This document shows, piece by piece, positions 7,345-62,478 of a stretch of 64,000 bases of DNA. Source of the stretch: Actinomycetota bacterium (lineage in GTDB: Bacteria > Actinomycetota > CADDZG01 > JAHWKV01). Below the pieces are notes generated by a model that was given only the letters and a program-made list of their open reading frames with translations, searched no databases and was not told the DNA's origin. Positions within the stretch are counted from its first letter, which is position 1. Each line of letters starts with the position of its first letter. The DNA lies in assembly GCA_046262935.1 (NCBI GenBank), contig JBHELT010000074.1, positions 13,251 to 77,250 on the forward strand, in the 5' to 3' direction. Position numbers and translations under genes: made by a program.

Positions 7345-7652
7345 CGAAGAGCCGTTCTTGCCACGATGTCGGCAGTGGGCGATGACCCAAGCAGGATGGA
7401 GATCTCGCCAAAGAAGTCGCCGCGGGACAAACGCGCAACCTGTTGCTCGTCTAGCTGAACATCTGCTTCGCCTTCGATGATCAGATAGAAGCCTGCACCC
7501 GAGAATCCTTTACGCAGAACACGTTGCCCGGCTGTGAAGACATCCTCTTCGAAAATATGGGCAGCAGCCTCGAGTTGGGGTCGTGAAAGATCTGCGAACA
7601 GAGCGAGTTGCGCGATCGCATCGATGACATCGCTAAGGTCAGTGGCAGTCAT
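7224..7652 (-). CDS. stand-alone cyclic-nucleotide-binding (cNMP/CAP-effector) domain protein, 142 aa
   Basis: FGEISILLGSSPTADIVARTALRCLVL and RKGFSGAGFYLIIEGEADV match the cNMP-binding β-roll. Start set to MTATDLS (ATG at 7650-7652); the longer tracked ORF overlaps the upstream gene. Confidence 0.7.
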   Translation of the reverse strand: MTATDLSDVIDAIAQLALFADLSRPQLEAAAHIFEEDVFTAGQRVLRKGFSGAGFYLIIEGEADVQLDEQQVARLSRGDFFGEISILLGSSPTADIVARTALRCLVLPASDLQGFLEAHPKVMYRMLQAEASRLHRSLQWRN

Positions 7653-7723
7653 GTTCCCTTTCTGAAATTCCTCTGCTTGCCCCCGGGCCCCACGCAGTAA
7701 GGGTCCGGAGTTGATGCTGAAGT

Positions 7724-45226: not shown

Positions 45227-46605
45227 CCGGCGCTCCTTTTCGATAAGAACGTGAGCAGATCCGATCGCGTGATGACACCAGAAGGCTTCCCATCAACCAT
45301 AACGACAACAGCTGACGCGCCCTGACCAAGGTTGGCAACCAGGGAGTCGACCTCTTCTTCAACATCAACCATCGGCATGGGCGGCTGCATGACCTCGATC
45401 ACTTGTTTCTCGAAGGCATCAGGTTCCTTCAATACGACCTCGAGCAGATCTCGTTCTCGGATCGAACCGAGAACATCTCCAGCATGCTCAGCGTCGTCTG
45501 AGCGCATGACCGGCAGTTGTGAAACTCCAAATTCGTGCATGATCTCGATCGCCACTTCGACCCGCTCGTGCGGATGGACGTGCACAACCCCAGGCAACTG
45601 CGAGGACTTCGTTTCGAGAACGTCGCCGACCCTCGCGCCAGCGGCTCTTCGTTCCAAGAACCCATGTTCGGTCAGCCAGTTGTCGTTGTATATCTTCGAT
45701 AGATAGGAACGCCCGCCATCGGGAAGAAGTACTACGACGATGGAATCTTGCGGAAGGTCGGCTCCCACCCTTAGGGCAGCCACGACCGCTGTGCCACAAG
45801 AACCACCGACCAAGATCCCTTCTTCGCGGGTGATCCGCCTTGTCATCGTGAACGTCTCGACGTCAGAGATCTTTTCCCACCGGTCGACTATCGAGCGATC
45901 GAAGGTCTCGGGGTAGAAGTCTTCGCCGATGCCTTCTGCAAGATACGGATGGATATCGTCCGGTTGGGTGTATATCGATCCTTCAGGGTCGGCTCCAACG
46001 ATCAAAACTTCGGGGTTGCGTTCTTTCAAGTACCGACCAACCCCCGTGATCGTTCCGCCTGTTCCAACGCCAGCTACGAACGCAGCCACCCTTCCTTCGG
46101 TCTGCTCCCAGATCTCGGGCCCAGTTGTTTTGTAGTGAGCCTCGGGATTGGCCTGATTGAAGTATTGGTTGGGCTGGAATGCCCCCGGAACTTCCTCCGC
46201 AAGCCTTTTCGCAACGCTGTAATAACTGCGGGGCGAGTCGGGCGCGACATCGGTCGGGCAAACGACAACCTCACCGCCATAGGCGCGCAGGAGATTGATC
46301 TTTTCTTGGCTCATCTTGTCGGGCATGACGAAGATGCATCGATATCCCTTTCGAACCGCCGCGATGGCGAGTCCGACCCCGGTATTGCCACTCGTCGGCT
46401 CGACGATGACTCCACCCGGTTTCAGGGTTCCATCACGTTCGCCCGCTTCGATCATCGCCTCGGCGATGCGATCCTTGACGCTTCCACCGGGGTTCAGGAG
46501 TTCCATCTTCGCCACGATCCGTGAAGGGTTGTTGCGGCCGATGCGGTCGAGCGCGACCAACGGCGTATCGCCTACGAGTGAAAGCAGGTCGTCACGGATC
46601 TCCAT
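45223..46605 (-). CDS. cystathionine β-synthase (PLP fold-II domain + tandem CBS domains)
   Basis: NPGGSVKDRIA, PTSGNTGVGLA, C-terminal CBS-pair region; 4-nt overlap with the downstream γ-lyase gives a reverse-transsulfuration operon. Confidence 0.85.
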   Translation of the reverse strand: MEIRDDLLSLVGDTPLVALDRIGRNNPSRIVAKMELLNPGGSVKDRIAEAMIEAGERDGTLKPGGVIVEPTSGNTGVGLAIAAVRKGYRCIFVMPDKMSQEKINLLRAYGGEVVVCPTDVAPDSPRSYYSVAKRLAEEVPGAFQPNQYFNQANPEAHYKTTGPEIWEQTEGRVAAFVAGVGTGGTITGVGRYLKERNPEVLIVGADPEGSIYTQPDDIHPYLAEGIGEDFYPETFDRSIVDRWEKISDVETFTMTRRITREEGILVGGSCGTAVVAALRVGADLPQDSIVVVLLPDGGRSYLSKIYNDNWLTEHGFLERRAAGARVGDVLETKSSQLPGVVHVHPHERVEVAIEIMHEFGVSQLPVMRSDDAEHAGDVLGSIRERDLLEVVLKEPDAFEKQVIEVMQPPMPMVDVEEEVDSLVANLGQGASAVVVMVDGKPSGVITRSDLLTFLSKRSAG

Positions 46606-46655
46606 CGCTGTAACTGTATCTTGCCTGAGCTATGCATCGATCACGCCACCCCGCC

Positions 46656-47645
46656 TCAGGGAGTACAGCCCGCACAGAAGTTCTGGGTCACCATCAGACC
46701 GTAGGGGCCCTTGTAGACCCCTATCCCCAGATCGGTGAATTCGGGCTTGAGGATGTTCTCTTTATGTTTGGGGGAGTTCATCAACCCCTGATGCACCAAA
46801 GTGATGGTCGGAGCCAAAGCCAGGTTCTCTCCGGCGAAGGAAAAGGAGATACCTTGACCCTCCATCCTTTGAAACGGGTCCCTGCCATCGGGATCTATAT
46901 GCGCGAAGTAGCCCCTTCGATACATGTCCGCCGAATGCGCCCTCGCGACTTCTCTCATCCTGTTGAACGGGTTCAACTTGCCGAGGCCCCTGCTCGTTCG
47001 TTCGCGGTTGACTAGATCGAATATCTGTTTCTCAGCGGCAGCGTCGATGGATATGTCATTCGACGGAGTGAGCTTGAAGAACTCTTCCTTCCCTTCCTGC
47101 TTCTCAACCTTCGCCGGCTGCAATTGCGCGAAGTACTGACGCAGGTAAAGAAGTACGTTCCTGGCTTCGTGCTTGGCGTAGTCGTCCAGCAGCGGATATA
47201 TAGGCGAGTTGGCAGCCAGTGCTGTGCGTCCGACGAATGATGAACGGACCACCCTTGTCCCTTCGGGAGAAGGGATGACGGTCACAACGACAAGCAGGAA
47301 TGCTGCGAACATCGCTGACCATAAGAACGCGAATGCCGCTCCACCAACCTTGTTCACGCTGGCGTTGTGCATCGCACCCATCTTGCCTTCAACGCGGCTG
47401 GACATGATCGCCGAAGCAACGACGAACAGGATGAAGATGAGCGCACCCCCGATGACGTTCGCCCACCCGGCGTTGGCACCGAAGAATTTGAAGATGGCCG
47501 CAGGTAGTTGATAAACACGAAGCGCGACAGCGATCGCGATGGCGAAACCAACAAGGTCGAGGCCCTCTCGCACTATGCCGCGATGGAACCCTCTGTACGC
47601 GTAGAACGCGACAAATGCAGCGAAGGCTACGTCTACCAGATTCAT
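46656..47645 (-). CDS. CvpA-family membrane protein fused to a C-terminal CAP/SCP (cysteine-rich secretory protein-like) domain
   Basis: N-terminal 4-TM CvpA-like region; C-terminal YFAHIDPDGRDPFQRMEGQGISFSFAGENLA...MNSPKHKENIL resembles CAP-domain motifs. Confidence 0.55.
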   Translation of the reverse strand: MNLVDVAFAAFVAFYAYRGFHRGIVREGLDLVGFAIAIAVALRVYQLPAAIFKFFGANAGWANVIGGALIFILFVVASAIMSSRVEGKMGAMHNASVNKVGGAAFAFLWSAMFAAFLLVVVTVIPSPEGTRVVRSSFVGRTALAANSPIYPLLDDYAKHEARNVLLYLRQYFAQLQPAKVEKQEGKEEFFKLTPSNDISIDAAAEKQIFDLVNRERTSRGLGKLNPFNRMREVARAHSADMYRRGYFAHIDPDGRDPFQRMEGQGISFSFAGENLALAPTITLVHQGLMNSPKHKENILKPEFTDLGIGVYKGPYGLMVTQNFCAGCTP

Positions 47646-47648
47646 TTC

Positions 47649-47894
47649 TTACCCTTGGGTCACGTCGCCCTCGATGGGGCTAACCTGCACACCTAGCAGA
47701 CCTAGGTGTGCAGCGGCGGCGTCGATCTGATCAGAAGAGCCTTCTATCTCAAGGATGACCCAGCCCACCTTCTCCTCGATATTGGCTCTCCTGATGTTCG
47801 TGATCACGTCGAATCTCTTTCCGAGTTCAAAGATGACAGGCTGGGTGATGAGTTTCTCAGGAAAAGTTAGATGAAGACGTCTGCTCGCCATCAA
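47649..47894 (-). CDS. small NIL-domain (ferredoxin-like) protein
   Basis: LHLTFPEKLITQPVIFELGKRFDVITNIRRANIEEKVGWVILEIEG matches the NIL-domain pattern found C-terminal to MetN and in sulfur-related operons. Confidence 0.5.
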   Translation of the reverse strand: MMASRRLHLTFPEKLITQPVIFELGKRFDVITNIRRANIEEKVGWVILEIEGSSDQIDAAAAHLGLLGVQVSPIEGDVTQG

Positions 47895-48763
47895 TCAACC
47901 TCTGCCTGGCTACGTTCAGAACGAGGTGCGCCCAGAGCGATCGTAACGATGCCCTCGTTCAAGGAACCTCTTCGGTACCCTTCCTCGTCGAGCGTCACTT
48001 CGCCAAATCCCATATTCAAAAGTGCCGTCTGAATCTCAAATGACGATGCCTTCAGAAGATCGAGCTCATCTTTGCCAACTTCAACGCGAGCGCGATCGTT
48101 GCCAAGGTCTCTGACCCGAAGAACCCGCAAGCCCGCTTCACGCAGGTATTCTTCGGCCCCCTCTACCCTGGCAAGGCCCTCGCGGGTGATCCCAACGCCA
48201 TAAGCGAATCTGCTTGCCAAACAAGCAGAGGCCGGTTTGGCCGACGTCGCAAGACCCAGAAGATCTGAAGCCCTTCGGATATCTTGCTTCGTCAACCCGA
48301 CATCCAGCATCGGATGCAAAGCGCCAGCCTCATCGGCAGCTACCTGCCCCGGTCTATGGTCCCCGATATCGTCGGCGTTGGTCCCAAGCAGCACTGGAAA
48401 ACCTGTCTCGGTCGCGAGCGGTGCCAGCGCGGTGAATAACTCGACTTTGCAGAAGTAACATCGGTTAGTGGGATTGGCTGCGTAATCGCTGGAACTGAGC
48501 TCATCGGTGGGCACGACAATATGTTTCCAACCTCGCGAATGGGCGAGACCTATGCAATCGAGAAGTTCCCTTCGAGGCAATGAGGCCGAATCGGCGGTCA
48601 CGGCGATGAAGCGATCACCCAATCGGCGATGGGCAACCTCTGAAAGGAAGGCACTATCGACGCCGCCTGAGAACGCGACGATCGCCCCTGGCAACTCGCC
48701 AACTCTGCGGTGTAGCTCATCCAACCTGTTCTCGAAACTCATGGGTCCATTTTTCCGCATCAT
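47891..48763 (-). CDS. PP-loop ATP pyrophosphatase of the LarE/TIGR00268 family (ATP-dependent sulfur transferase-like)
   Basis: PP-loop AFSGGVDSAFL, conserved CYFCK and ACLASRF cysteines. Confidence 0.65.
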   Translation of the reverse strand: MMRKNGPMSFENRLDELHRRVGELPGAIVAFSGGVDSAFLSEVAHRRLGDRFIAVTADSASLPRRELLDCIGLAHSRGWKHIVVPTDELSSSDYAANPTNRCYFCKVELFTALAPLATETGFPVLLGTNADDIGDHRPGQVAADEAGALHPMLDVGLTKQDIRRASDLLGLATSAKPASACLASRFAYGVGITREGLARVEGAEEYLREAGLRVLRVRDLGNDRARVEVGKDELDLLKASSFEIQTALLNMGFGEVTLDEEGYRRGSLNEGIVTIALGAPRSERSQAEVD

Positions 48764-48807
48764 GGGCAGGTACGATAGGCCGCCATTCGAGAAAGGGCCG
48801 GAACCTA

Positions 48808-49710
48808 GTGTCGCCTGCGGTGATCGAGGTCGAGAACCTCACCAAGATCTACGATGGGATCAAGGTCGTCGATTCATTGACGTTCAGGGTCGAAAAGGGT
48901 TCCTTGTGTGCTCTGCTCGGACCCAATGGAGCAGGCAAGACAACCACAGTCGAGATCCTCGAGGGTTACCGCAAACCAGACTCGGGCTCGGTTCGGGTAT
49001 TGGGCCACGACCCTTGGAGCACCGGAGGGGAACTCAAAAAACGTGTCGGGCTGATGCTTCAAGAAGGTGGCGTCTACCCTGGGATCCGGGTTGCGGAAGC
49101 CGCACGCCTGTTCGGTTCCTACTATGACAACCCAGTCTCGGTTGATGAAGCCATCGCGTCGGTAGGACTGACCGGGTATGAAAAGCGAAAGGTCAGGGGT
49201 CTTTCCGGCGGCGAGAAACAGCGATTGAATCTGGCTCTCGCGTTGATAGGCAAGCCCGAGGTTCTGTTCCTCGATGAACCGACATCGGGTATGGACCCCC
49301 ACGCCAGGGCATCGACGTGGGAGCGAATACAAGATCTCAAACGCAGCGGCGTGAGCATCTTGCTCACAACCCACTTCCTCGAAGAGGCCGAGAATCTGGC
49401 CGATACGGTTGCCATCATCGACGAGGGCAGGCTCATCGAGGAAGGTCAATTGGCCGACCTCCTCTCCGTCGGCAAACACTTCGAATTCAAGACCGATCAA
49501 CCCATAGATGCAGCCTCTTTGTCAGATCACCTCGGAGCGAAGGTGGTTTCGAACGTTGCCATGAGCTATGTCGTCGAGGCCGCGCCGACACCAAGCCTGA
49601 TCGCCCTGACCGCCGATTTCGTTTCATCTCACCAGGCCTTGATCACAGAACTCAAGACGGGACGCGTCTCTCTTGAATCGGTCTTCATGAAACTCACCTC
49701 AACCAAGTAG
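48808..49710 (+). CDS. ABC transporter ATP-binding protein (ABC-2/DrrA-like)
   Basis: Walker A GPNGAGKTT, signature LSGGEKQRLNLALAL, Walker B LFLDEPTSGMD. Confidence 0.9.
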   Translation: MSPAVIEVENLTKIYDGIKVVDSLTFRVEKGSLCALLGPNGAGKTTTVEILEGYRKPDSGSVRVLGHDPWSTGGELKKRVGLMLQEGGVYPGIRVAEAARLFGSYYDNPVSVDEAIASVGLTGYEKRKVRGLSGGEKQRLNLALALIGKPEVLFLDEPTSGMDPHARASTWERIQDLKRSGVSILLTTHFLEEAENLADTVAIIDEGRLIEEGQLADLLSVGKHFEFKTDQPIDAASLSDHLGAKVVSNVAMSYVVEAAPTPSLIALTADFVSSHQALITELKTGRVSLESVFMKLTSTK

Positions 49711-49731
49711 GAGGCTCTTACGAAAGCGCTA

Positions 49732-50439
49732 ATGGCACAGAGCCGCATCGAATTCATCATGACTCTAAGGCGTGGAGAGAGCCTGCTGGTCACGATCGGC
49801 ATCCCTGCGGGATTGCTACTGCTCTTCTCACTGATACCGATCACAAGTACGAGCAAGCATCCCGTTGACCTTCTGCTGGCTGGAACACTTGCCATCGCCG
49901 TCATGGCATCGGCCATGGTGAGTCTTGGGATCTCGACCGGCTACGAGCGGCACTACTTGGTTCTCAAGCGCCTAGGAGGTACTCCCCTTGGACGAGCCCG
50001 CCTGATCGCGGCAAAGATCATCACCATCCTTGCGATCGAGGTATTGCAGACGATCCTTTTGATCGGCCTAGCTATATTTGTTTTGCATGCTCATAACAAC
50101 ATCTCTTGGGCCGCTCTGGGGGCAACGATCCTTCTTGGCACTGCCGCGTTCGCGGGGATCGGTTCATCGATGGCTGGCCGTCTTCGCGCCGAAGCCAATT
50201 TGACCGCAGCGAACGCTCTGTTCTTACTTCTTCTGGTATTTGGCGGCTCGGTGGTTCCGCTCAGCCGTCTTCCCCATGCGCTCGCGGCTGTCGCCCGCGC
50301 CCTTCCGGCAGCGCCGCTAACCGAGATGATGAAATGGGCCGTGCGGGGTGGAGCTATCCCGTTTCACTCGTTGATCGTGCTGTCGGCCTGGGCCGTGATC
50401 ACTCTGGTTCTCGCGATCAAAACTTTCTCTTGGGAATGA
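49732..50439 (+). CDS. ABC-2 family transporter permease
   Basis: Six predicted TM helices; adjacent to the ABC-2 ATPase. Confidence 0.75.
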   Translation: MAQSRIEFIMTLRRGESLLVTIGIPAGLLLLFSLIPITSTSKHPVDLLLAGTLAIAVMASAMVSLGISTGYERHYLVLKRLGGTPLGRARLIAAKIITILAIEVLQTILLIGLAIFVLHAHNNISWAALGATILLGTAAFAGIGSSMAGRLRAEANLTAANALFLLLLVFGGSVVPLSRLPHALAAVARALPAAPLTEMMKWAVRGGAIPFHSLIVLSAWAVITLVLAIKTFSWE

Positions 50440-50454
50440 GGCCTGCGCTTCTTG

Positions 50455-52455
50455 CTACTTGGGGACGGCTATCCCGATGTTCGGCCAGGAAACGGTGAAC
50501 AATGCAGCGATCGCCAGTATGGGGATCGTCGTCCACGCAAGCTCCGAAGCTATCCGGGAACCCTTGCGATAACGAGCAACCGAAGCAACGATCGCTGTCT
50601 CGAAAGTTATGAACAACGCCGCAGCCACTATCGATACGGGCGCGTACAACCAGGTTAGGCTCGGCGCCGCTAACGCCCTGTCGATAGCTGCTCCCACGAA
50701 CAGCAGAACCAGATAGGTAAGCGAGAAATGGAACAAGGCCATCGCCGATCTTGGCGTAGGCCACCGTCGAAGGCGGATAGCGAAGAAGGCGAAGGCCGGT
50801 CCAAGGATGCAAGCGACCAACAGGTACATGGTCCCCATGTGCGCGACCGGATACAGCAGCAGACTCGTCGCGATGAGCACGAACGAGTAAAGCAAGATCT
50901 GCCGAGTAGTTTCCGCAACCCCGTGCACCACAGGGAGCATCGGTATCCCCGCGGCCGCATACTCGTCTTTATGTCTGAGCGACAGGGCCCAGAAGTGCGG
51001 TGGTGTCCAGTAGAAAACGATCGCGAACAATATCCAAGCGGGCGCGGACAATCCTCCAGTCACTGCGGCCCACCCAACTAGAACGGGAACAGCTCCCGCC
51101 GCGCCACCGATGACGATGTTCGACGGGGTTCGCCTCTTCATACCGATCGTGTAGACGAAGACGTAGAACAAGATCGCAGACGTCGCCAGAACTGCGGAAA
51201 GAAGGTTGACCAGGGCCGCGAGCCAACCGAACCCGGCGATACCAAGAACGATCCCGAATCGCAGCGCAGCGCGTGGATCAACTTGGTGTAATGGCAAGGG
51301 TCGCCCTGCGGTTCGTGGCATCTTCTCGTCGATGTCGCGGTCGACGTAACAATTGATCGAGTTGGCAGAACCTGCGGTGAGCGAACCTCCGAACAAAGTC
51401 GAAATGATCAGCCACCAAGAAGGATGACCCTTGCCAGCGATGACCATGGCTGGCACGGTAGTGATTAGAAGAAGTTCGATGATCCTTGGCTTCGTGAGCA
51501 TGAAGTAAGCCTTGGCCTTGTCGAGATTGGACGCCTCTATCGGGGTCAACCTTTCGCTCTGACTGCTGGTTGCCCGATCCTGAGCCGGGCTGATCCGGTA
51601 GGAAAGGGTTGCGAACGCAACCGTCATCGCCCACAGGATGGCCGAGGTCGTTACATGAGCCACGATCGCCCAAGGCTCAGACCTCGTAAACACGTTCAAC
51701 GCGCCAAAGGCAACTTGGACCGCCCATAGCAACGACATCGAATGCGCAAGCATCACCAACGCTCGCTCGCGTTTCGCGCTTTGCTTAACTCTGATCGACA
51801 GATGGATCAGGGTGATCCCAAGCAGCGCGGCCGCGATGCGGTGGCCATAGTGAAGCCAACCAAGTGCCCCTCCAGAGGGAAAGACTCCGCCATTCACCAG
51901 GGGCCAGTCCGGGTACACAAGTGCGGCGTGGAATTGAGATACGAATGCCCCAACTACCAAGACCGTACCAACAGCCCCAAGAGCAACAAGACCATGTCGT
52001 GACACTGGATCGAATGCTCCGCCCTTGGGGCGGAACGAATTGACGGCCGTATACACAAGTAACGCCAGCAGAGCCGATGCAACGACGAAGTGCAGCACTA
52101 CAGCGATCGACGTGAGATCGGCAACCACAACCAACCCTCCGATCCCTCCCTGCGCGAACACGAGGACGAGGGCCAGGAAACAGGGCCAGAAGATCGTTTT
52201 CACCGGACGGAACTTGAGCCACGCGTAGATAGCCAGAATGGTCACGAGCGCAACGACCAGCGAAGCAGCGACCCTGTGAGAGAACTCGATCGCAACGTTG
52301 ACGGAATCCAGCCGCGGGAGAAACTTGCCGTGGCAATGTGGCCAGTCGTTGCCGCACCCGAGTCCGGACTTAGTTGCCCTAACAAGCGCGCCGATCCCGA
52401 TCTGGATGGCGGTCATCACCGCCGCGGCTACCGTGAGATTTTGTAGGCGCTTCAA
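50455..52455 (-). CDS. ctaA-ctaB: fused heme A synthase (CtaA/COX15, N-terminal) – protoheme IX farnesyltransferase (CtaB/CyoE, C-terminal), 666 aa
   Basis: N-terminal GLGCGNDWPHCHG Cys-loop and His-containing TM helices of CtaA; C-terminal UbiA-family motif NCYVDRDIDEKMPRTAGRPLP of heme O synthase. Confidence 0.8.
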   Translation of the reverse strand: MKRLQNLTVAAAVMTAIQIGIGALVRATKSGLGCGNDWPHCHGKFLPRLDSVNVAIEFSHRVAASLVVALVTILAIYAWLKFRPVKTIFWPCFLALVLVFAQGGIGGLVVVADLTSIAVVLHFVVASALLALLVYTAVNSFRPKGGAFDPVSRHGLVALGAVGTVLVVGAFVSQFHAALVYPDWPLVNGGVFPSGGALGWLHYGHRIAAALLGITLIHLSIRVKQSAKRERALVMLAHSMSLLWAVQVAFGALNVFTRSEPWAIVAHVTTSAILWAMTVAFATLSYRISPAQDRATSSQSERLTPIEASNLDKAKAYFMLTKPRIIELLLITTVPAMVIAGKGHPSWWLIISTLFGGSLTAGSANSINCYVDRDIDEKMPRTAGRPLPLHQVDPRAALRFGIVLGIAGFGWLAALVNLLSAVLATSAILFYVFVYTIGMKRRTPSNIVIGGAAGAVPVLVGWAAVTGGLSAPAWILFAIVFYWTPPHFWALSLRHKDEYAAAGIPMLPVVHGVAETTRQILLYSFVLIATSLLLYPVAHMGTMYLLVACILGPAFAFFAIRLRRWPTPRSAMALFHFSLTYLVLLFVGAAIDRALAAPSLTWLYAPVSIVAAALFITFETAIVASVARYRKGSRIASELAWTTIPILAIAALFTVSWPNIGIAVPK

Positions 52456-52468
52456 ACTGCCTTCTTTT

Positions 52469-53095
52469 CTAAGTGACGGTTAGCTTGCCGTTCATCTGCT
52501 GAGGATGCACCTGGCATTCGAAGAAATAGGTCCCGGGCTTGAGGTCGGGCCCCTCAACCTTGACTGACTTTGGTCCTGTGATGATGTCGGTTTTGAACAG
52601 TGGAGGGTCACTCGAACCCTCGGCAACCAGGATCGCGAAGTTATGCGGGACCGATTCTTGGTTGTTGAACTTAAGCTCGAAGGTTCCTGCCGCCAGGGTG
52701 ATCTCTTTCTTGTCGAAAGTCGCGTCCTTGGCGTTGATCTCGATAGAGCGTCCCGCCCCTGAAGGCTGAGACTGTTTCGGGCCTTCAGCCGCAGCTTTCA
52801 TAGGGACTTTGACCTCGACCGCCCCGGCAGCTACTGCCGCCCCGATGAGCACCGGGACAAGCGCTACCCCGATCACCGGAACAAGTTGCATCCGGCTCAA
52901 TTTTGAACGGGCTGAAAGGAAGGCAAAAACGACCATCAGATTGAATGCGGTCATAAGGGCTACAGCGGTCGCGATCTGCTTGGGGACATTGAGCAGAACT
53001 CGAGAAAGCGTGAATGCGATCACGAAGATCGAACCTAACGCGATGATCGGGATCGCCACAGGCAGGATCACACGATCGCGCATCTGTTCATTCAT
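52469..53095 (-). CDS. membrane-anchored cupredoxin (plastocyanin/amicyanin-like type-1 copper protein)
   Basis: Type-1 Cu ligand set: H in VPHNF, then C, H, M in PGTYFFECQVHPQQMNG; N-terminal TM helices. Confidence 0.7.
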   Translation of the reverse strand: MNEQMRDRVILPVAIPIIALGSIFVIAFTLSRVLLNVPKQIATAVALMTAFNLMVVFAFLSARSKLSRMQLVPVIGVALVPVLIGAAVAAGAVEVKVPMKAAAEGPKQSQPSGAGRSIEINAKDATFDKKEITLAAGTFELKFNNQESVPHNFAILVAEGSSDPPLFKTDIITGPKSVKVEGPDLKPGTYFFECQVHPQQMNGKLTVT

Positions 53096-53117
53096 AGATC
53101 CACCATTCCTATCGACC

Positions 53118-53990
53118 CTATGGGCCCGTTTGGCCGGATTGATTGACCTTCAATTCAAGGTCCTGCCACTCGACCTCGTCAGGGGTCCCCTTCTCTTCCT
53201 TCGAGGACCAGCGGAAGAATAGCACCGCGATAACCCCCCAAAGAAGAAAACCACCGAACAGTTTCATGGTTAGTCCTGCGATGCGTTGGTCGGCGAGCGC
53301 CGAGAACCCTGCGAACAGTCGCGGAGCCTTTATGTAGAACGCGTACATGGGTGTCTCACCGAAGGTCAAGAACGATGCCGGAACGGTCGGTACGATCGTC
53401 TGCCCGAACAAGTAGAGCATCTGAGCTGGATTCGAGATGCGCGCGATCTCGGGCAATGGACTGAATACGGGCCACCACATGATGATCGCCGTGAAAAAAA
53501 GCCCGGCGTGGGCCAAGAAGTGAAGTGGGTGATTCACCAGTACTGCATCGACGAAAGCTGGCGAGTGACTGATCACCAGATAGCCGTTGAATAAGAGCAA
53601 CGCAGGGATCGGTCTCGTCAACTTCTTCATGATGAACATCACCGGCTTGGGGCCAAGGACCCGGCGAGCCATCCAATGAGGAATCCCCAACAATATGAGC
53701 GGAGCCCCAACCAGAGAAAAGATCAGATGCTGGAACATATGAACGCTGAACAGATACTGCTCGGCCATGTCGTGGATCGGCCAGCTGGCTCCTATCCAAA
53801 GAGCGCTCATCCCCCCCAAGAAGCATCCGACCTGCAGACGCGATACAGGCTTTTCGCCGGGTTCGACCGACGACTCCCCCCACCTAGCCACCAGCAGGGC
53901 ATAGATCGCGAGGCCCGCGAGCATCATCGCCCACACTTCGTAGTGAGGATGCCAGCCGAGTAGGTCCTGGAAAGATGCGGTTGAAGCGAG
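53118..53990 (-). CDS. ctaG: caa3-type cytochrome c oxidase assembly factor CtaG (Caa3_CtaG family)
   Basis: HMFQHLIFSLVGAPLILLG motif in a polytopic membrane protein; the tracked ORF (to 54170) overlaps ctaF, so the start is internal (exact start uncertain, near 53927-53990). Confidence 0.6.
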   Translation of the reverse strand, partial: LASTASFQDLLGWHPHYEVWAMMLAGLAIYALLVARWGESSVEPGEKPVSRLQVGCFLGGMSALWIGASWPIHDMAEQYLFSVHMFQHLIFSLVGAPLILLGIPHWMARRVLGPKPVMFIMKKLTRPIPALLLFNGYLVISHSPAFVDAVLVNHPLHFLAHAGLFFTAIIMWWPVFSPLPEIARISNPAQMLYLFGQTIVPTVPASFLTFGETPMYAFYIKAPRLFAGFSALADQRIAGLTMKLFGGFLLWGVIAVLFFRWSSKEEKGTPDEVEWQDLELKVNQSGQTGP

Positions 53991-54006
53991 CGCCGAGATC
54001 AATCCA

Positions 54007-54315
54007 CTAGCCGATCGGTGACCCCGGCCTCTGCACGATCGTGAAGGTAACAAGGACGATACCGAACACGATGATCGCAAGAACGATGCCAAGCACGAAC
54101 AGTCGCTTGAAAACCTTGCTGTCGAACCGCAGATGCATGAACCACGATGCGACAAGAATGAATTTGACAAGGGCCATGCTCAGCAGAACCGGAACGATGA
54201 TGGGTCGCATCGCTTTCACGTAGTAAACAGCGACCTCAGCTGCGGTGACCACAGCCAAGATGGCGGCGATCTTCATGTATTGAATGTCACTGGGATGCTT
54301 ATGCGTCTGTTCCAT
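54007..54315 (-). CDS. ctaF: cytochrome c oxidase subunit IV (bacterial CtaF)
   Basis: ~100 aa, 3 TM helices, PSDIQYMKIAAILAVVTAAEVAVYY; position between ctaE and ctaG. Confidence 0.65.
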   Translation of the reverse strand: MEQTHKHPSDIQYMKIAAILAVVTAAEVAVYYVKAMRPIIVPVLLSMALVKFILVASWFMHLRFDSKVFKRLFVLGIVLAIIVFGIVLVTFTIVQRPGSPIG

Positions 54316-54328
54316 CGGGGTCTCCGCG

Positions 54329-54988
54329 CTAAGGGATCAGATAAACGACAGTGAAGATGACGATCCAAACGATATCGACGAAGTGCCAATAAAGACCGAT
54401 CAGCTCGACCTTTCGAGCATCTTGCTCTGACAACTTCCCAAGGTGAGAAAGTCCAACCAAAGAAAGCAGCATCAAGATACCGATGGTCACATGGGCGCCA
54501 TGAAATCCCGTGAGAACAAAGAATGACGACCCGAAGTTGCTCGTCTTGAGCGTTAGGCCCTCTTTGACGAAACCGGTGAACTCATAGATCTGGCCGCCGA
54601 TGAAGGTGCACCCAAGCAGGGCGGTGGCCAGCAGCCAAGCACGCATGCGTTTGTGGTCGCCTCGTTGGATCGCTGCAAGCGCCAGGACCATTGTCAAACT
54701 GCTCATCAGAAGAACGAATGACGAGACCGAGGTGTATGGGATGTCGTAGAGCTGATGTGGCTTGGGGCCCGAAAGAGAGTGGTGCTTGTAGAGCAGGTAT
54801 GCCGATATCAGGGAGCCGAAGAAAAGACACTCGGACCCAAGGAATGCCCACATCGCGAGCTTGGTGTTGTCGAGACCGGTGTAGGTCTCGTGAGCCCCAT
54901 GCTCTTCGTGGCCGTGATGCTCGATGGCGGTTGAATCTTGCACTTGCTGTCTCCTACTCTTCCGCCGCTGGTTCAAGGACCCATCCAT
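54329..54988 (-). CDS. ctaE: cytochrome c oxidase subunit III (CtaE)
   Basis: AMWAFLGSECLFFGSLISAYLLY, WHFVDIVWIVIFTVVY. Confidence 0.85.
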   Translation of the reverse strand: MDGSLNQRRKSRRQQVQDSTAIEHHGHEEHGAHETYTGLDNTKLAMWAFLGSECLFFGSLISAYLLYKHHSLSGPKPHQLYDIPYTSVSSFVLLMSSLTMVLALAAIQRGDHKRMRAWLLATALLGCTFIGGQIYEFTGFVKEGLTLKTSNFGSSFFVLTGFHGAHVTIGILMLLSLVGLSHLGKLSEQDARKVELIGLYWHFVDIVWIVIFTVVYLIP

Positions 54989-56819
54989 ACAGCCCAGCCA
55001 GAAGAACGAAGCCTCCGAAGATGCCCAGCCACCAACTATGCATCATGACCGCGTAGGCCATCAGTGGAAGTCCTACCGCCGCGACCATCGGGAAATATGA
55101 AGGCGACGGCATGTGTATATGCAGTTCCTGGGCATCTGCGTGTTCCTCACCGTGATCGCTAGCACCGGCGGGAACAGGCATCGGCCGACCCCGCTTGTCT
55201 TCGGTGTACTTCTGGTGCCAAAAGTCGTCACGATCGTGCACCCGCGGGATGGTTGCAAAGTTGTACTCAGGAGGCGGCGAAGGGATCGTCCACTCGAGGG
55301 TGCGGCCGTCCCACGGGTCCCCAGTCGCCTTGTGCCCTTTGCGTTTACTGTGAACGAAGTTGTACATGAACACCAAGATCGAAGCGGCGATCATAAAGGC
55401 GCCAACGGTCGAAACCATGTTCCACAGATCCCAACCGCGCCCGGAAGGGTAGGTGTAGATGCGACGCGACATCCCCTTCAATCCGAGGATGTGGAATGGC
55501 CCAAAAGTGACGTTGAATCCGATGATCATCAGCCAGAAGTGGATCTTGCCAAGGGTTTCATTCATCAGCCTTCCGGTGAACTTAGGGAACCAGTAGTAGA
55601 TGCCCGAGAACAACCCGAAGATGGCGCCCCCGAACAGTACGTAATGGAAGTGGGCCACTATGTAGTAAGTGTCGGTCTGCTGGGTGTCGTGCGGCACGAT
55701 CGAGTGCGTGACTCCAGAAAGGCCCCCGATGATGAACATGGCCACGAAACCGATCGAGAAAAGCATCGGCGACTTGAACCTGAGTGACCCGCGATGCAGC
55801 GTTGCTATCCAGTTGAAGATCTTTACGCCTGTTGGAACGGCGATGAACATGGTCGAGGTAGCGAAGGCGGCGTTGGCCGCGGTCCCCAAGCCGACGGCGA
55901 ACATGTGATGAGCCCAAACGCCCCATCCCATGAACCCGATGGCGATACCCGAGAAGACAACCGCCGAGTAACCGAACAGCGGCTTGCGTGAGAAGGTTGG
56001 CAGCACTTCGCTGACTATTCCCATGGCGGGCAAGATCAAGATGTAAACCTCCGGATGACCGAACAACCAGAACAGGTGCTGCCAAAGAACGGGATCACCA
56101 CCCGCAGCCGGGTTGAAGAAGTTGGCCCCGAAGTTACGATCGAAAGTCATCATGAATAGCGCAACAGCGATGATCGGCATTGCGAACAGAAGCAAGAAGT
56201 TGACCACCAGGGTCATCCACACGAACACCGGCAAACGCAGCAAAGACATACCAGGGGCTCGCATGTTGATGATGGTCACTATGAAGTTGGCCGAGGCAAC
56301 GATCGAAGCCAGTCCAAGGATCTGAAGGCCAAGGGCGTAAAAGTCGATGCGATGTCCCGGCGAGAAGGCGCTAGACAAAGGCGCGTAGTTGAACCATCCG
56401 CCGTCGGGGGCTCCACCCAGGAACCAACTCGAATAGATGAAGAGGCCCCCGAAGAGAAAGACCCAATAGCTGAACGCGTTCAGGCGTGGGAAGGCAACGT
56501 CTCTCGCCCCGATCATCAGGGGCAGCAGATAGTTGAAGAACGCCGCCCCCAGAGGCATAACAACCAAGAAGATCATCGTCACGCCATGTGTCGTGAACAA
56601 TTGGTTATAAAGATCAGCGCTCACCACATGACCGTTGGGCTTGGCCAACTGCAGTCGAATGAGCATCGCTTCGAGCCCACCCAATATGAAGAAGAAGAAC
56701 GCGGTGTAGCCATACATCAGGCCTATACGTTTGTGGTCAACCGTTGTCACCCAGCTCGAGATGCCAGTCTTCGCCGAAGGACGGCGGAATGGAACAGGAA
56801 GCTCGCCAGCCAAAGCCAT
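54954..56819 (-). CDS. ctaD: cytochrome c oxidase subunit I (CtaD)
   Basis: WFFGHPEVYILILP, HHMFAVG, canonical 12+ TM helices; 621 aa. Confidence 0.95.
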   Translation of the reverse strand: MALAGELPVPFRRPSAKTGISSWVTTVDHKRIGLMYGYTAFFFFILGGLEAMLIRLQLAKPNGHVVSADLYNQLFTTHGVTMIFLVVMPLGAAFFNYLLPLMIGARDVAFPRLNAFSYWVFLFGGLFIYSSWFLGGAPDGGWFNYAPLSSAFSPGHRIDFYALGLQILGLASIVASANFIVTIINMRAPGMSLLRLPVFVWMTLVVNFLLLFAMPIIAVALFMMTFDRNFGANFFNPAAGGDPVLWQHLFWLFGHPEVYILILPAMGIVSEVLPTFSRKPLFGYSAVVFSGIAIGFMGWGVWAHHMFAVGLGTAANAAFATSTMFIAVPTGVKIFNWIATLHRGSLRFKSPMLFSIGFVAMFIIGGLSGVTHSIVPHDTQQTDTYYIVAHFHYVLFGGAIFGLFSGIYYWFPKFTGRLMNETLGKIHFWLMIIGFNVTFGPFHILGLKGMSRRIYTYPSGRGWDLWNMVSTVGAFMIAASILVFMYNFVHSKRKGHKATGDPWDGRTLEWTIPSPPPEYNFATIPRVHDRDDFWHQKYTEDKRGRPMPVPAGASDHGEEHADAQELHIHMPSPSYFPMVAAVGLPLMAYAVMMHSWWLGIFGGFVLLAGLYGWVLEPAAEE

Positions 56820-56832
56820 CAGTTAGCTCCGT

Positions 56833-57860
56833 TCATTTCAAACTCAGAAGGTAAGCGGTCAAAGCGTCGATGTCGTCTTGACTCAGATGATAGTTGGGCA
56901 TCTTCGAACCTGGCTTGCGAGCGGGCGGGTTGGCCAGCCACTTCGAGACCGCGTCGGCATTGATATCGAAGATAGAACCTGCGAATGTGCCGCGGCTGGC
57001 GAAGTGGGTGAGGTTGGGACCAACGATCCCAGCCGCCGTGGTCCCCTTGACCGTGTGACATCCAACGCAGGGACCGTTCACGAAAACTTGCTCACCTTGT
57101 TGTGCCAGGCTCGTTTCGGGAGCTACTCGGTCTTTAGTTTGGTCCGACACCCAGGTGTCGAAATCCGATGCTTCGTCGGCGAAGACCCTGTTTCGCATGT
57201 TCGCGTGAGACGCACCGCAATACTCAACGCACTCACCAACGAATTGCCCTTTGACCGGCGAAGAGATGGTCATATGGTTGATGCGTCCAGGAACCACGTC
57301 CTGTTTACCCGCAAGTTTGGGGACCCAGTAGCTGTGGATGACGTCGACAGACTCGAGGGTTAAGTAGACAGGCCGGCCGACGGGGATATGCAATTCATTG
57401 GCGGTTGTCACTCCCAAGGTCGGATATCGATATTCCCACCACCACTGATGGCCGATAACTGTCACTTCCAAGGGGTTGTCCTTCGGTTTGGCCGAGATGT
57501 CGTAGATCCCTTTGATCGTAGGAACCGCGATCCCGGAAAGAAGCAGGACCGGGATCAGTGTCCATGCGATCTCGGCCTTGTGGTTTCCGTGCACCTGTTT
57601 GGGAGCATCCCGAGAGGACTTCTGCCGGTATCGCACGATCACGAATAGCAAAGCCCCCTCGACCAGCACGAAAACAACCGCCGCGATACCGAAGGTCAAT
57701 CTCCAAAGAGAGTCTTCGCGCTTCGCGATGGCGCCCACCGGATGCAGGAAGTTCTGCGGGGCATCACGTGAGCAGCCGATGAGCAAGAACATCAGCCCAA
57801 CAGCGAACAAGGTCGCTAGGAACTTTGGCCGCGCGAAATGAGGTTTCCTGCTGAGATTCA
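56833..57860 (-). CDS. ctaC: cytochrome c oxidase subunit II with C-terminal cytochrome c domain (caa3-type CtaC)
   Basis: CuA site HSYWVPKLAGK...CVEYCGASHANM and heme-c site CVGCH. Start probably a GTG near 57858 (VNLSRKPHF...LIGCS lipoprotein-type signal) rather than the tracked 57990, which would overlap the divergent gene. Confidence 0.8.
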
Positions 57861-57908
57861 CGGTGCTGGATGCTAACAGAGCGCGGGGATGGTTACAGTT
57901 AAGGAACT

Positions 57909-59024
57909 TTGTGCCCCCGAGACCAAGATCCCCCCCCGCAACGCTCCACCATGCAGGAGCACCACGAGCGCGACGAGGCCGGCACACCAACCGATCTCGA
58001 TTCGCTCAGGGCATTGATCGAAGAACGACTCACCGAGCGACTGGTGGGGATGCATGCCTGGTTTCGGGAAATCGAACCGCGCTCGGTGGATCTGCTTGAT
58101 CTTGTGAGCGGCCTGGTTTCATCGGGCGGCCGAAGGATCCGGCCCCTTCTTACTGTGATCTCGTTCATGGCCTGCGGCGGACGCATAGGCCAGGAGATAT
58201 TGGATGTGGCTGTGTCGATCGAGATGCTCCACACGTTCGCCTTGATCCACGACGATGTCATGGACTCTTCTGACGTACGGCGTGGGGTGCGAACCATCGG
58301 AGCAGCAAGCGGCAACGCGGTCGCCATCCTGGCTGGGGACCTGGCCTTGATCCTTTCGGACCACATCTATTGGGATTCAGGTTTCCAGCCATCAGCGTTG
58401 AGCAAGGCAGCCAAGTCCATCGATCAGATGCGGCTCGAGGCGATAGCCGGCCAGTACCTTGACCTCAAGGATCCTCATGCACAAGCTGCGAAGGTGGCCG
58501 ACCTGAAAACAACGTCGTACACGATCAGGGGCCCTCTTAGAGTTGGAGCACACCTGGCGGGTGGTTCGGTCCCCCGGTCTTTGGACCTCTTCAGCGAGCC
58601 GCTCGGGGCTGGGTTCCAACTTGCCAATGACCTGGTTGGGTTGTTTTCGGGACCCTCGCCAGCTCAGACCGACATCGCAGGCCCGGCGAAGAACCGTCTC
58701 TTCGAGATCTTCTATGAGACATGTTCCGATGAAGAATCGATCGCGAACGTCACGAGAGTGAGGACATCGGCCGCGACCGACCAGGCGAGCATCGACCTGG
58801 TGAGGTCCGCGATCACCGAGTCGGGAGCGTTGAAGGTTGCTCTGGAATCAGTCCGAAGTTCGGTCTTCAGAGCCAAAAAGATCCTCGAAGAACATGTCAC
58901 GCAGTTTCCTCGCCCAACCGCCGCGATGATGTTGAATGAGATCGCCGACCTGGTCTTGATCAAAGCTGTGGCCATCGCGGCCAGTGAAGTAGAGTCCCCT
59001 GGACACGAGAGAAGGAGTCAGTAA
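57909..59024 (+). CDS. polyprenyl diphosphate synthase (trans-isoprenyl diphosphate synthase family)
   Basis: FARM LIHDDVMDSSDVRRG and second Asp-rich GFQLANDL motif. Confidence 0.8.
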   Translation: MCPRDQDPPPQRSTMQEHHERDEAGTPTDLDSLRALIEERLTERLVGMHAWFREIEPRSVDLLDLVSGLVSSGGRRIRPLLTVISFMACGGRIGQEILDVAVSIEMLHTFALIHDDVMDSSDVRRGVRTIGAASGNAVAILAGDLALILSDHIYWDSGFQPSALSKAAKSIDQMRLEAIAGQYLDLKDPHAQAAKVADLKTTSYTIRGPLRVGAHLAGGSVPRSLDLFSEPLGAGFQLANDLVGLFSGPSPAQTDIAGPAKNRLFEIFYETCSDEESIANVTRVRTSAATDQASIDLVRSAITESGALKVALESVRSSVFRAKKILEEHVTQFPRPTAAMMLNEIADLVLIKAVAIAASEVESPGHERRSQ

Positions 59025-59025
59025 A

Positions 59026-59433
59026 GTGAAAAAGGTCTTTGGCGTAGTTTTGATAGGTGCGATCGCACTGGTTGGATGCTCGAAGAGTGGCTCGAGCGGA
59101 TCCGGCTCAACGTCGGGTTCGGGGTCTGCTGCGACCTGCTCTCCAGGCGGCGCCGAGCTGACCGTTTCGGCGAAGGACACGTCGTTCGACAAGAAATGCC
59201 TTGCCGCCCCCGCGGACGCAGCGTTCACGATCGCACTCGACAACAAGGATGGATTCCCTCACAACATCTCGATCTACAAGTCAAAGGGCGGAGCCGACGT
59301 TTACAAGGGCCAGCCATTCGCCGAGGCGAGCAAGACCACGACCTATTCGGTCCCCGCAACCACGGCAGGCACTTACTACTTCCAATGCGACATCCACCCG
59401 GACCAGATGAATGGAACCTTCATCGTGAAGTAG
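59026..59433 (+). CDS. lipoprotein cupredoxin (type-1 copper protein, second paralog)
   Basis: Signal + lipobox LVGCS; Gly/Ser linker; ligand set H in FPHNI, then C, H, M in AGTYYFQCDIHPDQMNG. Confidence 0.7.
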   Translation: MKKVFGVVLIGAIALVGCSKSGSSGSGSTSGSGSAATCSPGGAELTVSAKDTSFDKKCLAAPADAAFTIALDNKDGFPHNISIYKSKGGADVYKGQPFAEASKTTTYSVPATTAGTYYFQCDIHPDQMNGTFIVK

Positions 59434-59450
59434 TTGTTCGTTAGTTCTAA

Positions 59451-59479
59451 GAAGAAGGGCCCCTTGGGGGCCCTTCTTC
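59451..59479 (+). terminator. rho-independent-type terminator hairpin downstream of the cupredoxin gene
   Basis: Perfect 13-bp stem GAAGAAGGGCCCC-ttg-GGGGCCCTTCTTC followed by a T-containing tract. Confidence 0.6.
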
Positions 59480-59741
59480 TGTCGTTGATGGCTCGCTGGG
59501 CCGGACGCGAGAAAGGCTGGCGGACCTCCTGCGGGGCCCATCAGCCTCTCCCTATTCGGTTTTGGCTCCCTCCCGGTGATCGGCCGGGGGTGGCCGCATT
59601 CGGTAGGCCCGGCAACCATGCCCAGCTAGGGGCGCTCAGATGGACGCTCGGTCCACCAAAAATTGGTGCGTGGGGATTCCCGACTTCTCGATTGTCGCGC
59701 CGCCAAGCCAACAAGGGAAGAGTTTTTCTGAATAAGGCAGG

Positions 59742-59969
59742 TCAGAAACCGAGTTCAAAATCGAGATCGAGCCTTCCTTCGATCTCTCGCAACTGGTTCC
59801 GCGCACAATCGGGGCAAAGATAGCCTTGCAGCTTGGAACCGCTCCCCAAGATCGACCATCCCAGTGGGAACGAATCTCCGCGAACGCGCTGCGTTGCACC
59901 GCAAGACCGACAAACGATCCTATTGCGGCGGGCGATCCTGGAATCTGGGGTCTCGTCGTCGTCGGCCAA
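59742..59969 (-). CDS. small zinc-ribbon-like protein (75 aa, two CxxC pairs)
   Basis: CRSCGAT...CPDCAR. Confidence 0.35.
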   Translation of the reverse strand: MADDDETPDSRIARRNRIVCRSCGATQRVRGDSFPLGWSILGSGSKLQGYLCPDCARNQLREIEGRLDLDFELGF

Positions 59970-59990
59970 GGTGGATAAACAGTAGCAGGC

Positions 59991-60698
59991 TCAGCGACTA
60001 CCTATATACAACCCTCTGCCCATCAGGCCATCAGGGTCATGTTCGACAACCAAGCCAGCCAGCCGGAATGCTTCCTGGTATTCATCGCTCGTGAAAAGAG
60101 TCGTCGCGTGGGTCTCCATGAATGCCTCGACGCCCTGCGGCGTGCCGACCAGATAATGCAACTGAAGTGTTGAGTCTCTTGGGTCATCCGAAGAGGCTCC
60201 CACCGTCATCCTTGCGATCTTCAGGTCCGGCTTATCGACGAAACGAGCATGGACCTGGCCACGTAGCCATTCGTCAGGCGTGAACCAAGGCTCAACGACA
60301 ACGAGGCCGCCGGGTGCCAAGTGGGCGGCCATCCGGGCGATCGCCTTGTTCAAGTGGCCGACCGTCGGCCCGCAATAGCCGATCGCGCTGAAAAGGCAGG
60401 TGACCACATCGAACTTGCGTCCGAGATCGAAATCGCCCATGTCGCCAACATGCAGCGCCACGGACCCAAGGCGCTCTTGGGCGATCTTCAAAAGGCCGAG
60501 GTCGAGATCGAGCCCTTCCACCTGGAAGCGCTTCATGAAGTAGCGCAGGTGAAGACCAGTCCCGCACGCTACGTCCAACAGCGTTTGGGCACCAGGCACC
60601 CTCGCCTCGACGATATCGGCGACCTTTGATGCTTCGCGGTCGTAGTCCTTCATCTCTTGATAGATGAGGTCATACAGATGGGGGCTCTTGTCGAACAT
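59991..60698 (-). CDS. class I SAM-dependent methyltransferase
   Basis: Motif I LLDVACGTGLH, post-I acidic residue EGLDL. Confidence 0.8.
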   Translation of the reverse strand: MFDKSPHLYDLIYQEMKDYDREASKVADIVEARVPGAQTLLDVACGTGLHLRYFMKRFQVEGLDLDLGLLKIAQERLGSVALHVGDMGDFDLGRKFDVVTCLFSAIGYCGPTVGHLNKAIARMAAHLAPGGLVVVEPWFTPDEWLRGQVHARFVDKPDLKIARMTVGASSDDPRDSTLQLHYLVGTPQGVEAFMETHATTLFTSDEYQEAFRLAGLVVEHDPDGLMGRGLYIGSR

Positions 60699-60730
60699 CG
60701 AGTTTTCCTTTTAGGGGAAGGCGATAAGAA

Positions 60731-60759
60731 GAAGGGGGCCGGATTCCGGCCCCCCCTTC
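60731..60759 (-). terminator. GC-rich hairpin terminator downstream of groEL
   Basis: GGGGGCCGG-att-CCGGCCCCC stem followed on the minus strand by a TTCTTCTTAT tract. Confidence 0.55.
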
Positions 60760-60783
60760 CTTGGTGCTGTGACCAGATACTGC

Positions 60784-62478
<1,695 letters not shown>

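Follow-up and report, generated by a model that had tools for sequence, protein, structure and literature searches.

The 64,000 nucleotides (nt) of DNA analysed here (contig JBHELT010000074.1; the whole stretch, at this length, is called the window) come from an uncultured lineage of Actinomycetota and contain an open reading frame (ORF), ctaAB, in which heme A synthase (CtaA) is followed by heme O synthase (CtaB) and then by 70 amino acids (aa) that lie outside the models of both enzymes. The locus raises the question whether this is truly one gene, what its product would do, and where the additional C-terminal residues come from. We put at about 85% the probability that ctaAB is a genuinely fused gene encoding a bifunctional heme O/heme A synthase which serves the adjacent caa3-type cytochrome c oxidase, and that its tail is derived from COX2_TM, the transmembrane (TM) hairpin of oxidase subunit II (COX2). 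The enzyme activities, any channelling between them, and the origin and role of the tail are what we infer from sequence. The fusion itself is already known; this case is set apart by its host, an actinobacterium, and chiefly by the tail derived from COX2, of which no mention was found in the papers searched.

The ctaAB gene is a single ORF of 666 aa at 50455..52455 on the minus strand, opening with TTG. This start codon is credible, because AGAAGG is found 6 nt upstream, an in-frame stop lies seven codons upstream, and the alignment with homologues also begins at residue 1. The original prediction had described one CtaA-CtaB reading frame at this position, and this description was borne out by the ORF call, Pfam and NCBIfam: neither a stop nor a frameshift separates the two halves, the frame is equally continuous in a near-identical copy at NCBI, and the Cys loop GLGCGNDWPHCHG (aa 31-43, 52327..52365) and the UbiA-type motif NCYVDRDIDEKMPRTAGRPLP (aa 368-388, 51292..51354) are both present where they had been claimed. 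It overlooked a third module, a COX2-like hairpin formed by aa 597-666. Together, the ORF, the Pfam and NCBIfam matches and the structural model give the order heme A synthase, linker, heme O synthase and COX2_TM-like tail. The model, produced with AlphaFold2 (AF2) from an alignment of 70 homologues, has a mean predicted local distance difference test score (pLDDT) of 91.1, a predicted template modelling score (pTM) of 0.80, and 19 TM helices, of which eight belong to CtaA (aa 2-288), nine to CtaB (aa 323-594) and two to the tail (aa 601-627 and 635-661); a short amphipathic helix sits between the disordered linker (aa 289-309 in the model) and the helices of CtaB. The 19 helices take an N-in, C-out topology, with 22 Lys and Arg residues in cytoplasmic loops against 6 outside. 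With the whole model as query, Foldseek matched the folds of the two enzymes but gave no match to the tail, and no solved structure of a fusion was found.

The CtaA/COX15 domain occupies aa 1-288 (51592..52455, minus strand), with eight TM helices. Pfam places COX15-CtaA (PF02628) on aa 7-278 (E 2e-35; 122.7 bits against a cut-off of 29.9), and the domain resembles the CtaA of Bacillus subtilis (6A2J) by phmmer (E 7e-26) and by Foldseek (TM-score 0.77). It consists of two four-helix repeats, as its N-terminal half aligns with both halves of 6A2J. Among the 70 homologues, conservation is complete or reaches at least 90% at E57, H60, H122, H205 and H267 and at both residues of the Cys pair C34/C41; the four conserved His and the Glu of the B. 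subtilis enzyme (H60, H123, H216, H278 and E57) are thus all represented, and the motifs EFSH, LHF, GHRIAA and AHV agree with the corresponding segments of 6A2J. The two Cys residues, spaced by 6 residues, are located in extracellular loop 1, and extracellular loop 3 (aa 175-196) has no Cys. Since a pair is present in loop 1 and missing from loop 3, the domain is assigned to class C, or type 1C, whereas B. subtilis CtaA is a class B enzyme with two Cys pairs.

The CtaB/CyoE domain, of the UbiA family, covers aa 316-596 (50668..51510, minus strand) and has nine TM helices. UbiA (PF01040) was found on aa 329-577 (E 1e-70), and the cut-offs of the NCBIfam equivalogs for heme o synthase were clearly exceeded (NF003349, 402.5 bits against 246; TIGR01473, 330.5 bits against 210.3). 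By Foldseek the domain matched membrane prenyltransferase structures of the UbiA family with TM-scores of 0.65-0.83. The Asp-rich motif for prenyl diphosphate and Mg, N368-x3-D372-x3-D376 followed by R381 and R385, is invariant or nearly so in the 70-homologue alignment, in which WTPPHFWAL (aa 483-491) is conserved as well, and it falls in a predicted cytoplasmic loop. [quoted passage not shown] The cytoplasmic linker between them (aa 289-315, 51511..51591, minus strand) is predicted to be disordered and is poorly conserved, with a pLDDT of 53-63 in the model and a mean pairwise identity of 12%. In homologues the stretch that matches aa 276-326 of the query, and so spans the linker, varies from 41 to 78 aa and is in frame every time.

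From these features a working scheme can be proposed. Heme B would be farnesylated by the CtaB domain (aa 316-596), the resulting heme O would be oxidised to heme A by the CtaA domain (aa 1-288), and the heme A would be supplied to the caa3-type oxidase of the same operon. The fusion would fix the two activities at a ratio of 1:1 and hold their active sites close together. A topology check of the linker region indicated that both enzymes could keep their native orientation: since its helices are even in number, CtaA starts and ends on the cytoplasmic side (N-in, C-in) and would be joined through the cytoplasmic linker to an N-in CtaB, so that neither would be inverted. After the 17th helix the chain would be outside the cell, and the two helices that follow would be a diverged copy of the subunit II hairpin.

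A search for the same architecture and its taxonomic distribution found it repeatedly. In the best 120 database matches both Pfam domains lie in one protein, of 526-838 aa and with 47-58% identity, and these homologues stem from many independent metagenomes. Profiles of CtaA and of CtaB were also run separately on 82 sequences, made up of the window, its NCBI twin and 80 genome loci. One ORF carried both domains in 76 of them; CtaA came first in all 76 and CtaB in none. This order fits the topology, as the reverse order would be expected to invert CtaA; an even-helix CtaA has to precede CtaB. Five related loci have ctaA and ctaB adjacent but separate. Two of these show one in-frame stop within the linker (L004, at about 8928, and L079, at about 8922), and the other three a change of frame between the genes (L066, L077 and L078); L077 and L078 are by identity the closest genome relatives. 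At each of the five unfused loci a true fission, a read-through site or an assembly error is possible.

The near-identical locus (L081) belongs to a metagenome-assembled genome (MAG) of Actinobacteria/Actinomycetota (GCA_020201635.1, contig JAIVGJ010000187.1), where the protein is named "heme o synthase". Over window positions 46121-62455 the two records differ by 8 substitutions in 16,335 nt (at 51785, 52120, 52431, 52823, 56106, 56210, 58314 and 58542). Three of the eight fall inside ctaAB: two alter the protein (V9I and K224T), one is synonymous, and the frame is uninterrupted in either copy. With 40,389 nt, the deposited contig does not reach the length of the window. Judged from these sequences, ctaAB is a genuinely fused gene and no artefact.

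The fusion also has published precedents. CtaA fused with CtaB has been tabulated for Deinococcus-Thermus, MAGs of Chloroflexi, Armatimonadetes, Acetothermia, Ktedonobacter, Bdellovibrio and others (Degli Esposti et al. 2021, PMC8239418), the same work lists class C, or type 1C, CtaA as CtaB-fused in Chloroflexi and Acetothermia, and the fusion is mentioned in a review (PMC9145763). In archaea, 56% of type 1A heme A synthases occur as fusions with heme O synthase (Halobacteria; PMC12808453). The arrangement had been called uncommon in the original prediction, which overstates the case, given its documentation in several bacterial and archaeal groups. The protein of the window resembles the Chloroflexi/Acetothermia and Deinococcus-Thermus fusions (class C, type 1.0 CtaA) in that CtaA comes first, the Cys pair of loop 1 is 6 apart, loop 3 has no pair, and the gene is linked to the oxidase. 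Chloroflexota homologues align to its residues 1-598 with 38-48% identity; unlike these fusion proteins, it has the COX2_TM-like tail of 70 aa. Like the archaeal type 1A fusion of Halobacteria it carries both enzymes of the heme A pathway in one chain (PMC12808453), but the archaeal CtaA is a half-size unit of 4 TM helices and the CtaA considered here a full one of 8. No mention of a COX2-like tail was found for the archaeal fusion in that source. The host lineage, uncultured Actinomycetota, is not among the fusion taxa listed in PMC8239418.

The tail, aa 597-666 (50458..50667, minus strand), comprises two extra TM helices (aa 601-627 and 635-661) and was assigned by profile searches, hhalign and BLASTP. 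In the alignment of homologues the closest ones have a two-helix tail, a second group has the first helix only, and proteins of about 600 aa have none. Across tails of proteins that are about 50% identical overall, the motif E-x-x-W-T-x-x-P is conserved, with E, T and P invariant and W in at least 90%. In the window the motif is E638-x2-W641-T642-x2-P645 (50521..50544, minus strand), located at the cytoplasmic start of the last helix, and it aligns with the E-x-x-W-T-x-x-P of TM helix 2 of COX2.

The loci and the window together contain 10,740 stop-to-stop ORFs, all of which were compared with a profile made from 41 tails. Apart from the tails themselves, each ORF with a significant match was 236-532 aa long, with E values from 1e-18 to 6e-6, and the next match stood at 0.64. 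The window's own COX2 was among these matches (E 3.5e-11), and all ten matches that were checked proved to be Pfam COX2 proteins in which the tail aligned on the COX2_TM domain. Aligned with hhalign, the tail alignment and the COX2 hairpin alignment agreed with 99% probability (E 2.9e-18) over 63 columns that include both helices. Scanned singly against Pfam, 11 of 17 tails matched COX2_TM (PF02790) at E≤1, the best at 1.4e-5, and no other family was matched by more than two. By BLASTP the window's tail is 36% identical to its own COX2 (E 4e-7), again on the hairpin. Searched against 1.84 billion representative proteins, the tail profile gave 913 matches, and in all of the 10 top matches examined the aligned part exceeded the gathering score of COX2_TM. 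Conversely, a profile made only from COX2 (27 hairpins) found below E = 1, besides COX2, only the tail of one other locus (L002; E 1.3e-6) and that of the window.

Hydrophobic composition alone was considered as a cause of the COX2 matches and rejected, as no other membrane-protein ORF of the 10,740 fell below E 0.6 and the motif is specific.

The architecture agrees with this assignment. Having passed through 17 helices, the tail would be N-out and C-out, which is the native topology of the subunit II hairpin, and it shares with COX2_TM two helices, the motif where helix 2 begins on the cytoplasmic side, and the conserved pattern of aromatic residues and Glu in helix 1. In contrast to COX2, it has a shortened cytoplasmic loop from which Q-x-HGN is lost, and no CuA domain. 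The real COX2 of the operon retains its own hairpin, so the tail is an extra copy. CtaAB ends 5 residues past the last helix, with no CuA cupredoxin domain after the hairpin; it therefore does not qualify as a subunit II and has just the anchor of that subunit in copy. On this sequence evidence the tail is homologous to the COX2_TM hairpin. No COX2-like segment on CtaA or CtaB was found in the papers searched, PMC8239418 included; automatic domain databases lay outside this search and may already annotate the architecture.

Seven further proteins of 330-450 aa (P0122, P0128, P0133, P0137, P0147, P0167 and P0174) have a C-terminal COX2_TM hairpin as their sole Pfam domain, after 190-320 domain-less residues. 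They may be truncated COX2 proteins with a long N-terminal extension, or another architecture that reuses the hairpin.

Where the tail came from is suggested by its distribution. At the loci with a two-helix tail ctaAB is always the last gene of the operon (the window/L081, L082, L083, L086 and L087; 5/5), as it is at the locus with a one-helix tail (L085). In two tail-less loci (L084 and L088) ctaAB comes first, about 155 nt upstream of a ctaC whose 5' end encodes the hairpin, and in a third (L089) it stands alone. Read from these nine loci, the most likely course is that ctaAB shifted from the first to the last position of the operon, taking the 5' part of ctaC along. With regard to conservation, pairwise identity is 35-38% in the tail helices, against 12% in the linker and 40-91% in the catalytic helices; the tail helices are about three times better conserved than the linker. 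The tail would accordingly be constrained but dispensable, as its identity lies above that of the linker and below that of the catalytic helices and as it is reduced or lost in relatives.

Several of these observations weigh against the reading given at the outset. The window's tail alone gave no PF02790 match in Pfam at E≤1, being below Pfam detection, and hit only the unrelated 8xMP and TauE weakly. Against the COX2-only profile it scored no better than E 1.2e-3, and it is chiefly the family of tails as a whole that carries its assignment. Its conservation lies below that of the catalytic helices, some relatives have it in reduced form or not at all, and the relation between its state and the position of ctaAB in the operon was seen in 9 loci.

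As to what the tail does, the explanation that comes nearest to an even chance is that it is a tolerated relic of the rearrangement, at most a generic pair of membrane helices without a specific partner. Its restriction to loci with ctaAB last, its decay to one helix or complete loss in relatives, a conservation below that of the catalytic helices and the disappearance of Q-x-HGN from the loop would all be expected of such a relic; the near-invariance of the Glu, Trp, Thr and Pro of the COX2 motif and the threefold excess of conservation over the linker would not. The helix that bears this motif in COX2 packs against subunit I and carries the entrance Glu of the K-pathway.

A more specific role may be considered tentatively, although we think it rather less probable than not by a good measure: the tail could be a docking module by which the synthase settles on freshly made, cofactor-free subunit I, at the surface where subunit II docks, and passes heme A straight into it before the real subunit II displaces the enzyme. 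This docking would fit the retained Glu/Trp/Thr/Pro motif and agree with published proposals of binding between heme A synthase and subunit I or its assembly intermediates. Thus, heme A synthase has been suggested to bind apo-subunit I (PMC9145763), and Cox15 associates with Cox1 assembly intermediates, according to work cited in a passage of PMC7582755.

The fusion of the two enzymes poses a separate question, that of heme O transfer. The original prediction took the covalent joining to imply obligate substrate channelling, which is overstated and unsupported: five relatives keep the genes separate, and the linker is disordered and variable. Given that ctaA and ctaB fuse and split so readily among close relatives, obligate channelling is argued against. 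The fusion could even serve only co-expression and a 1:1 stoichiometry, with heme O freed into the membrane and rebound and no channelling at all. This possibility, which appears doubtful but deserves a hearing, agrees with the disordered linker and the labile gene structure and with the fact that in most organisms CtaA and CtaB function as separate proteins (PMC9145763); it agrees less well with the complex that the separate enzymes already form (PMC9145763) and with the pTM of the model, which suggests a defined arrangement of the domains. Between the two extremes, the fusion probably favours the hand-over of heme O; because relatives split the genes, this hand-over would not be obligatory.

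For the tail there is one more proposal, and an improbable one, namely that it is an anchor which places a periplasmic thioredoxin-like partner of the TlpA/ResA type at the site of oxidase assembly, the partner being, in the case of the window, absent or encoded elsewhere. It derives from three proteins (P0044, P0048 and P0081) in which the hairpin runs on into an AhpC-TSA/Redoxin domain and from one locus (L086) in which a separate Redoxin gene of 177 aa overlaps the stop codon of ctaAB. However, most proteins with a tail, that of the window included, stop 5-20 residues after the last helix, and in the window, L082 and L087 a Redoxin gene is missing after ctaAB. The proteins with the additional domain (804-838 aa; in L083, at 6521-9004) are composed of four modules, CtaA, CtaB, a COX2_TM-like hairpin and a periplasmic, TlpA-like AhpC-TSA/Redoxin domain. 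The overlapping gene of L086 (10025-10558) is probably the pre-fusion state of this Redoxin module.

Finally, the notion that a sequencing or assembly error erased a stop or a frameshift between what are really two genes, ctaA and ctaB, has been rejected: adjacent separate genes do occur at the five loci described above, but more than 100 independent homologues and nearly all of the examined loci are fused, their linkers differ in length and always keep the frame, the window and the NCBI record are both open with 3 nt of difference in the gene, and the fusion is in the literature.

The genes around ctaAB are consistent with a product that serves the oxidase. From 57861 down to 50455 all genes are on the minus strand, separated by gaps of 13, 10, 13, 4, 22 and 13 nt. 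The order claimed earlier, ctaCDEFG, a cupredoxin gene and ctaAB last, was confirmed by the gene positions and Pfam. The first gene, ctaC (56833..57861), encodes a COX2 that has a COX2_TM hairpin of its own and is fused to a cytochrome c, as in caa3-type oxidases. It is followed by ctaD (54954..56819), which encodes COX1 of 621 aa with a C-terminal extension like Cyt_c_ox_IV; ctaE (54329..54943), COX3 of 204 aa; ctaF (54007..54315), COX4_pro of 102 aa; ctaG (53118..54002), the assembly factor Caa3_CtaG, of 294 aa as called in the NCBI twin; and, directly upstream of ctaAB, a gene for a membrane-anchored cupredoxin of 208 aa (52469..53095; Pfam Cupredoxin_1, E 3e-13). The same order was found in independent MAGs (L082, L083, L085, L086 and L087), and in these the cupredoxin gene keeps its place in the operon. 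A scan of 49600-59200 for promoter and terminator consensus sequences gave no more sites than shuffled sequence, a result that says nothing on the transcription unit.

Divergently from the operon, on the plus strand, lies a gene for a polyprenyl diphosphate synthase (57951..59024; PF00348). It adjoins the cluster in 9 of 9 loci examined, and in L089 it is still beside ctaAB although the oxidase genes are absent. The enzyme is a plausible, perhaps likely, source of the farnesyl donor, and its retention with ctaAB suggests a dedicated supply of farnesyl diphosphate for heme O synthesis. In the window it is followed by a small cupredoxin gene on the plus strand (135 aa, 59026-59433).

A few observations concern the neighbouring genes themselves. 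The extension of COX1, about 65 aa at its C-terminus, matches Pfam Cyt_c_ox_IV (PF12270) on aa 556-616 (E 1.7e-6), beside the separate COX4_pro gene at 54007-54315, and it is likewise present in L082, L083, L086 and L087. At nine loci, mostly from Chloroflexota MAGs (L005, L020, L040, L042, L048, L064, L067, L071 and L072), COX2 ORFs lie 1-4 kb downstream of ctaAB, and the CuA domain of their COX2 is followed by a second domain of this kind, a plastocyanin-like Cupredoxin_1. The COX2 of the window carries cytochrome c instead, and the cupredoxin is separate and membrane-anchored (52469-53095). This suggests a blue-copper electron donor that either forms part of the oxidase by fusion or is the product of a gene next to it. 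On the other side of ctaAB, an ABC-2 type exporter gene pair on the plus strand (48808-49710 and 49732-50439) converges on it, with only 15 nt from one stop codon to the other; L086 has this pair after ctaAB too, whereas L082, L083 and L087 do not. Some cultured Actinobacteria have an ABC transporter between ctaA and ctaB.

Taken as a fusion, ctaAB is a further, actinobacterial case of a documented architecture which is under-annotated as plain "heme o synthase". Through its tail, the enzyme that produces the cofactor of the oxidase would have acquired part of one of the structural subunits of that oxidase. The transfer of heme A from the synthase into subunit I is poorly understood in bacteria, and the tail offers a testable lead on the docking site. 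If the docking reading is true, the tail would be a built-in module for docking during assembly, and a natural handle for studying the insertion of hemes a and a3.

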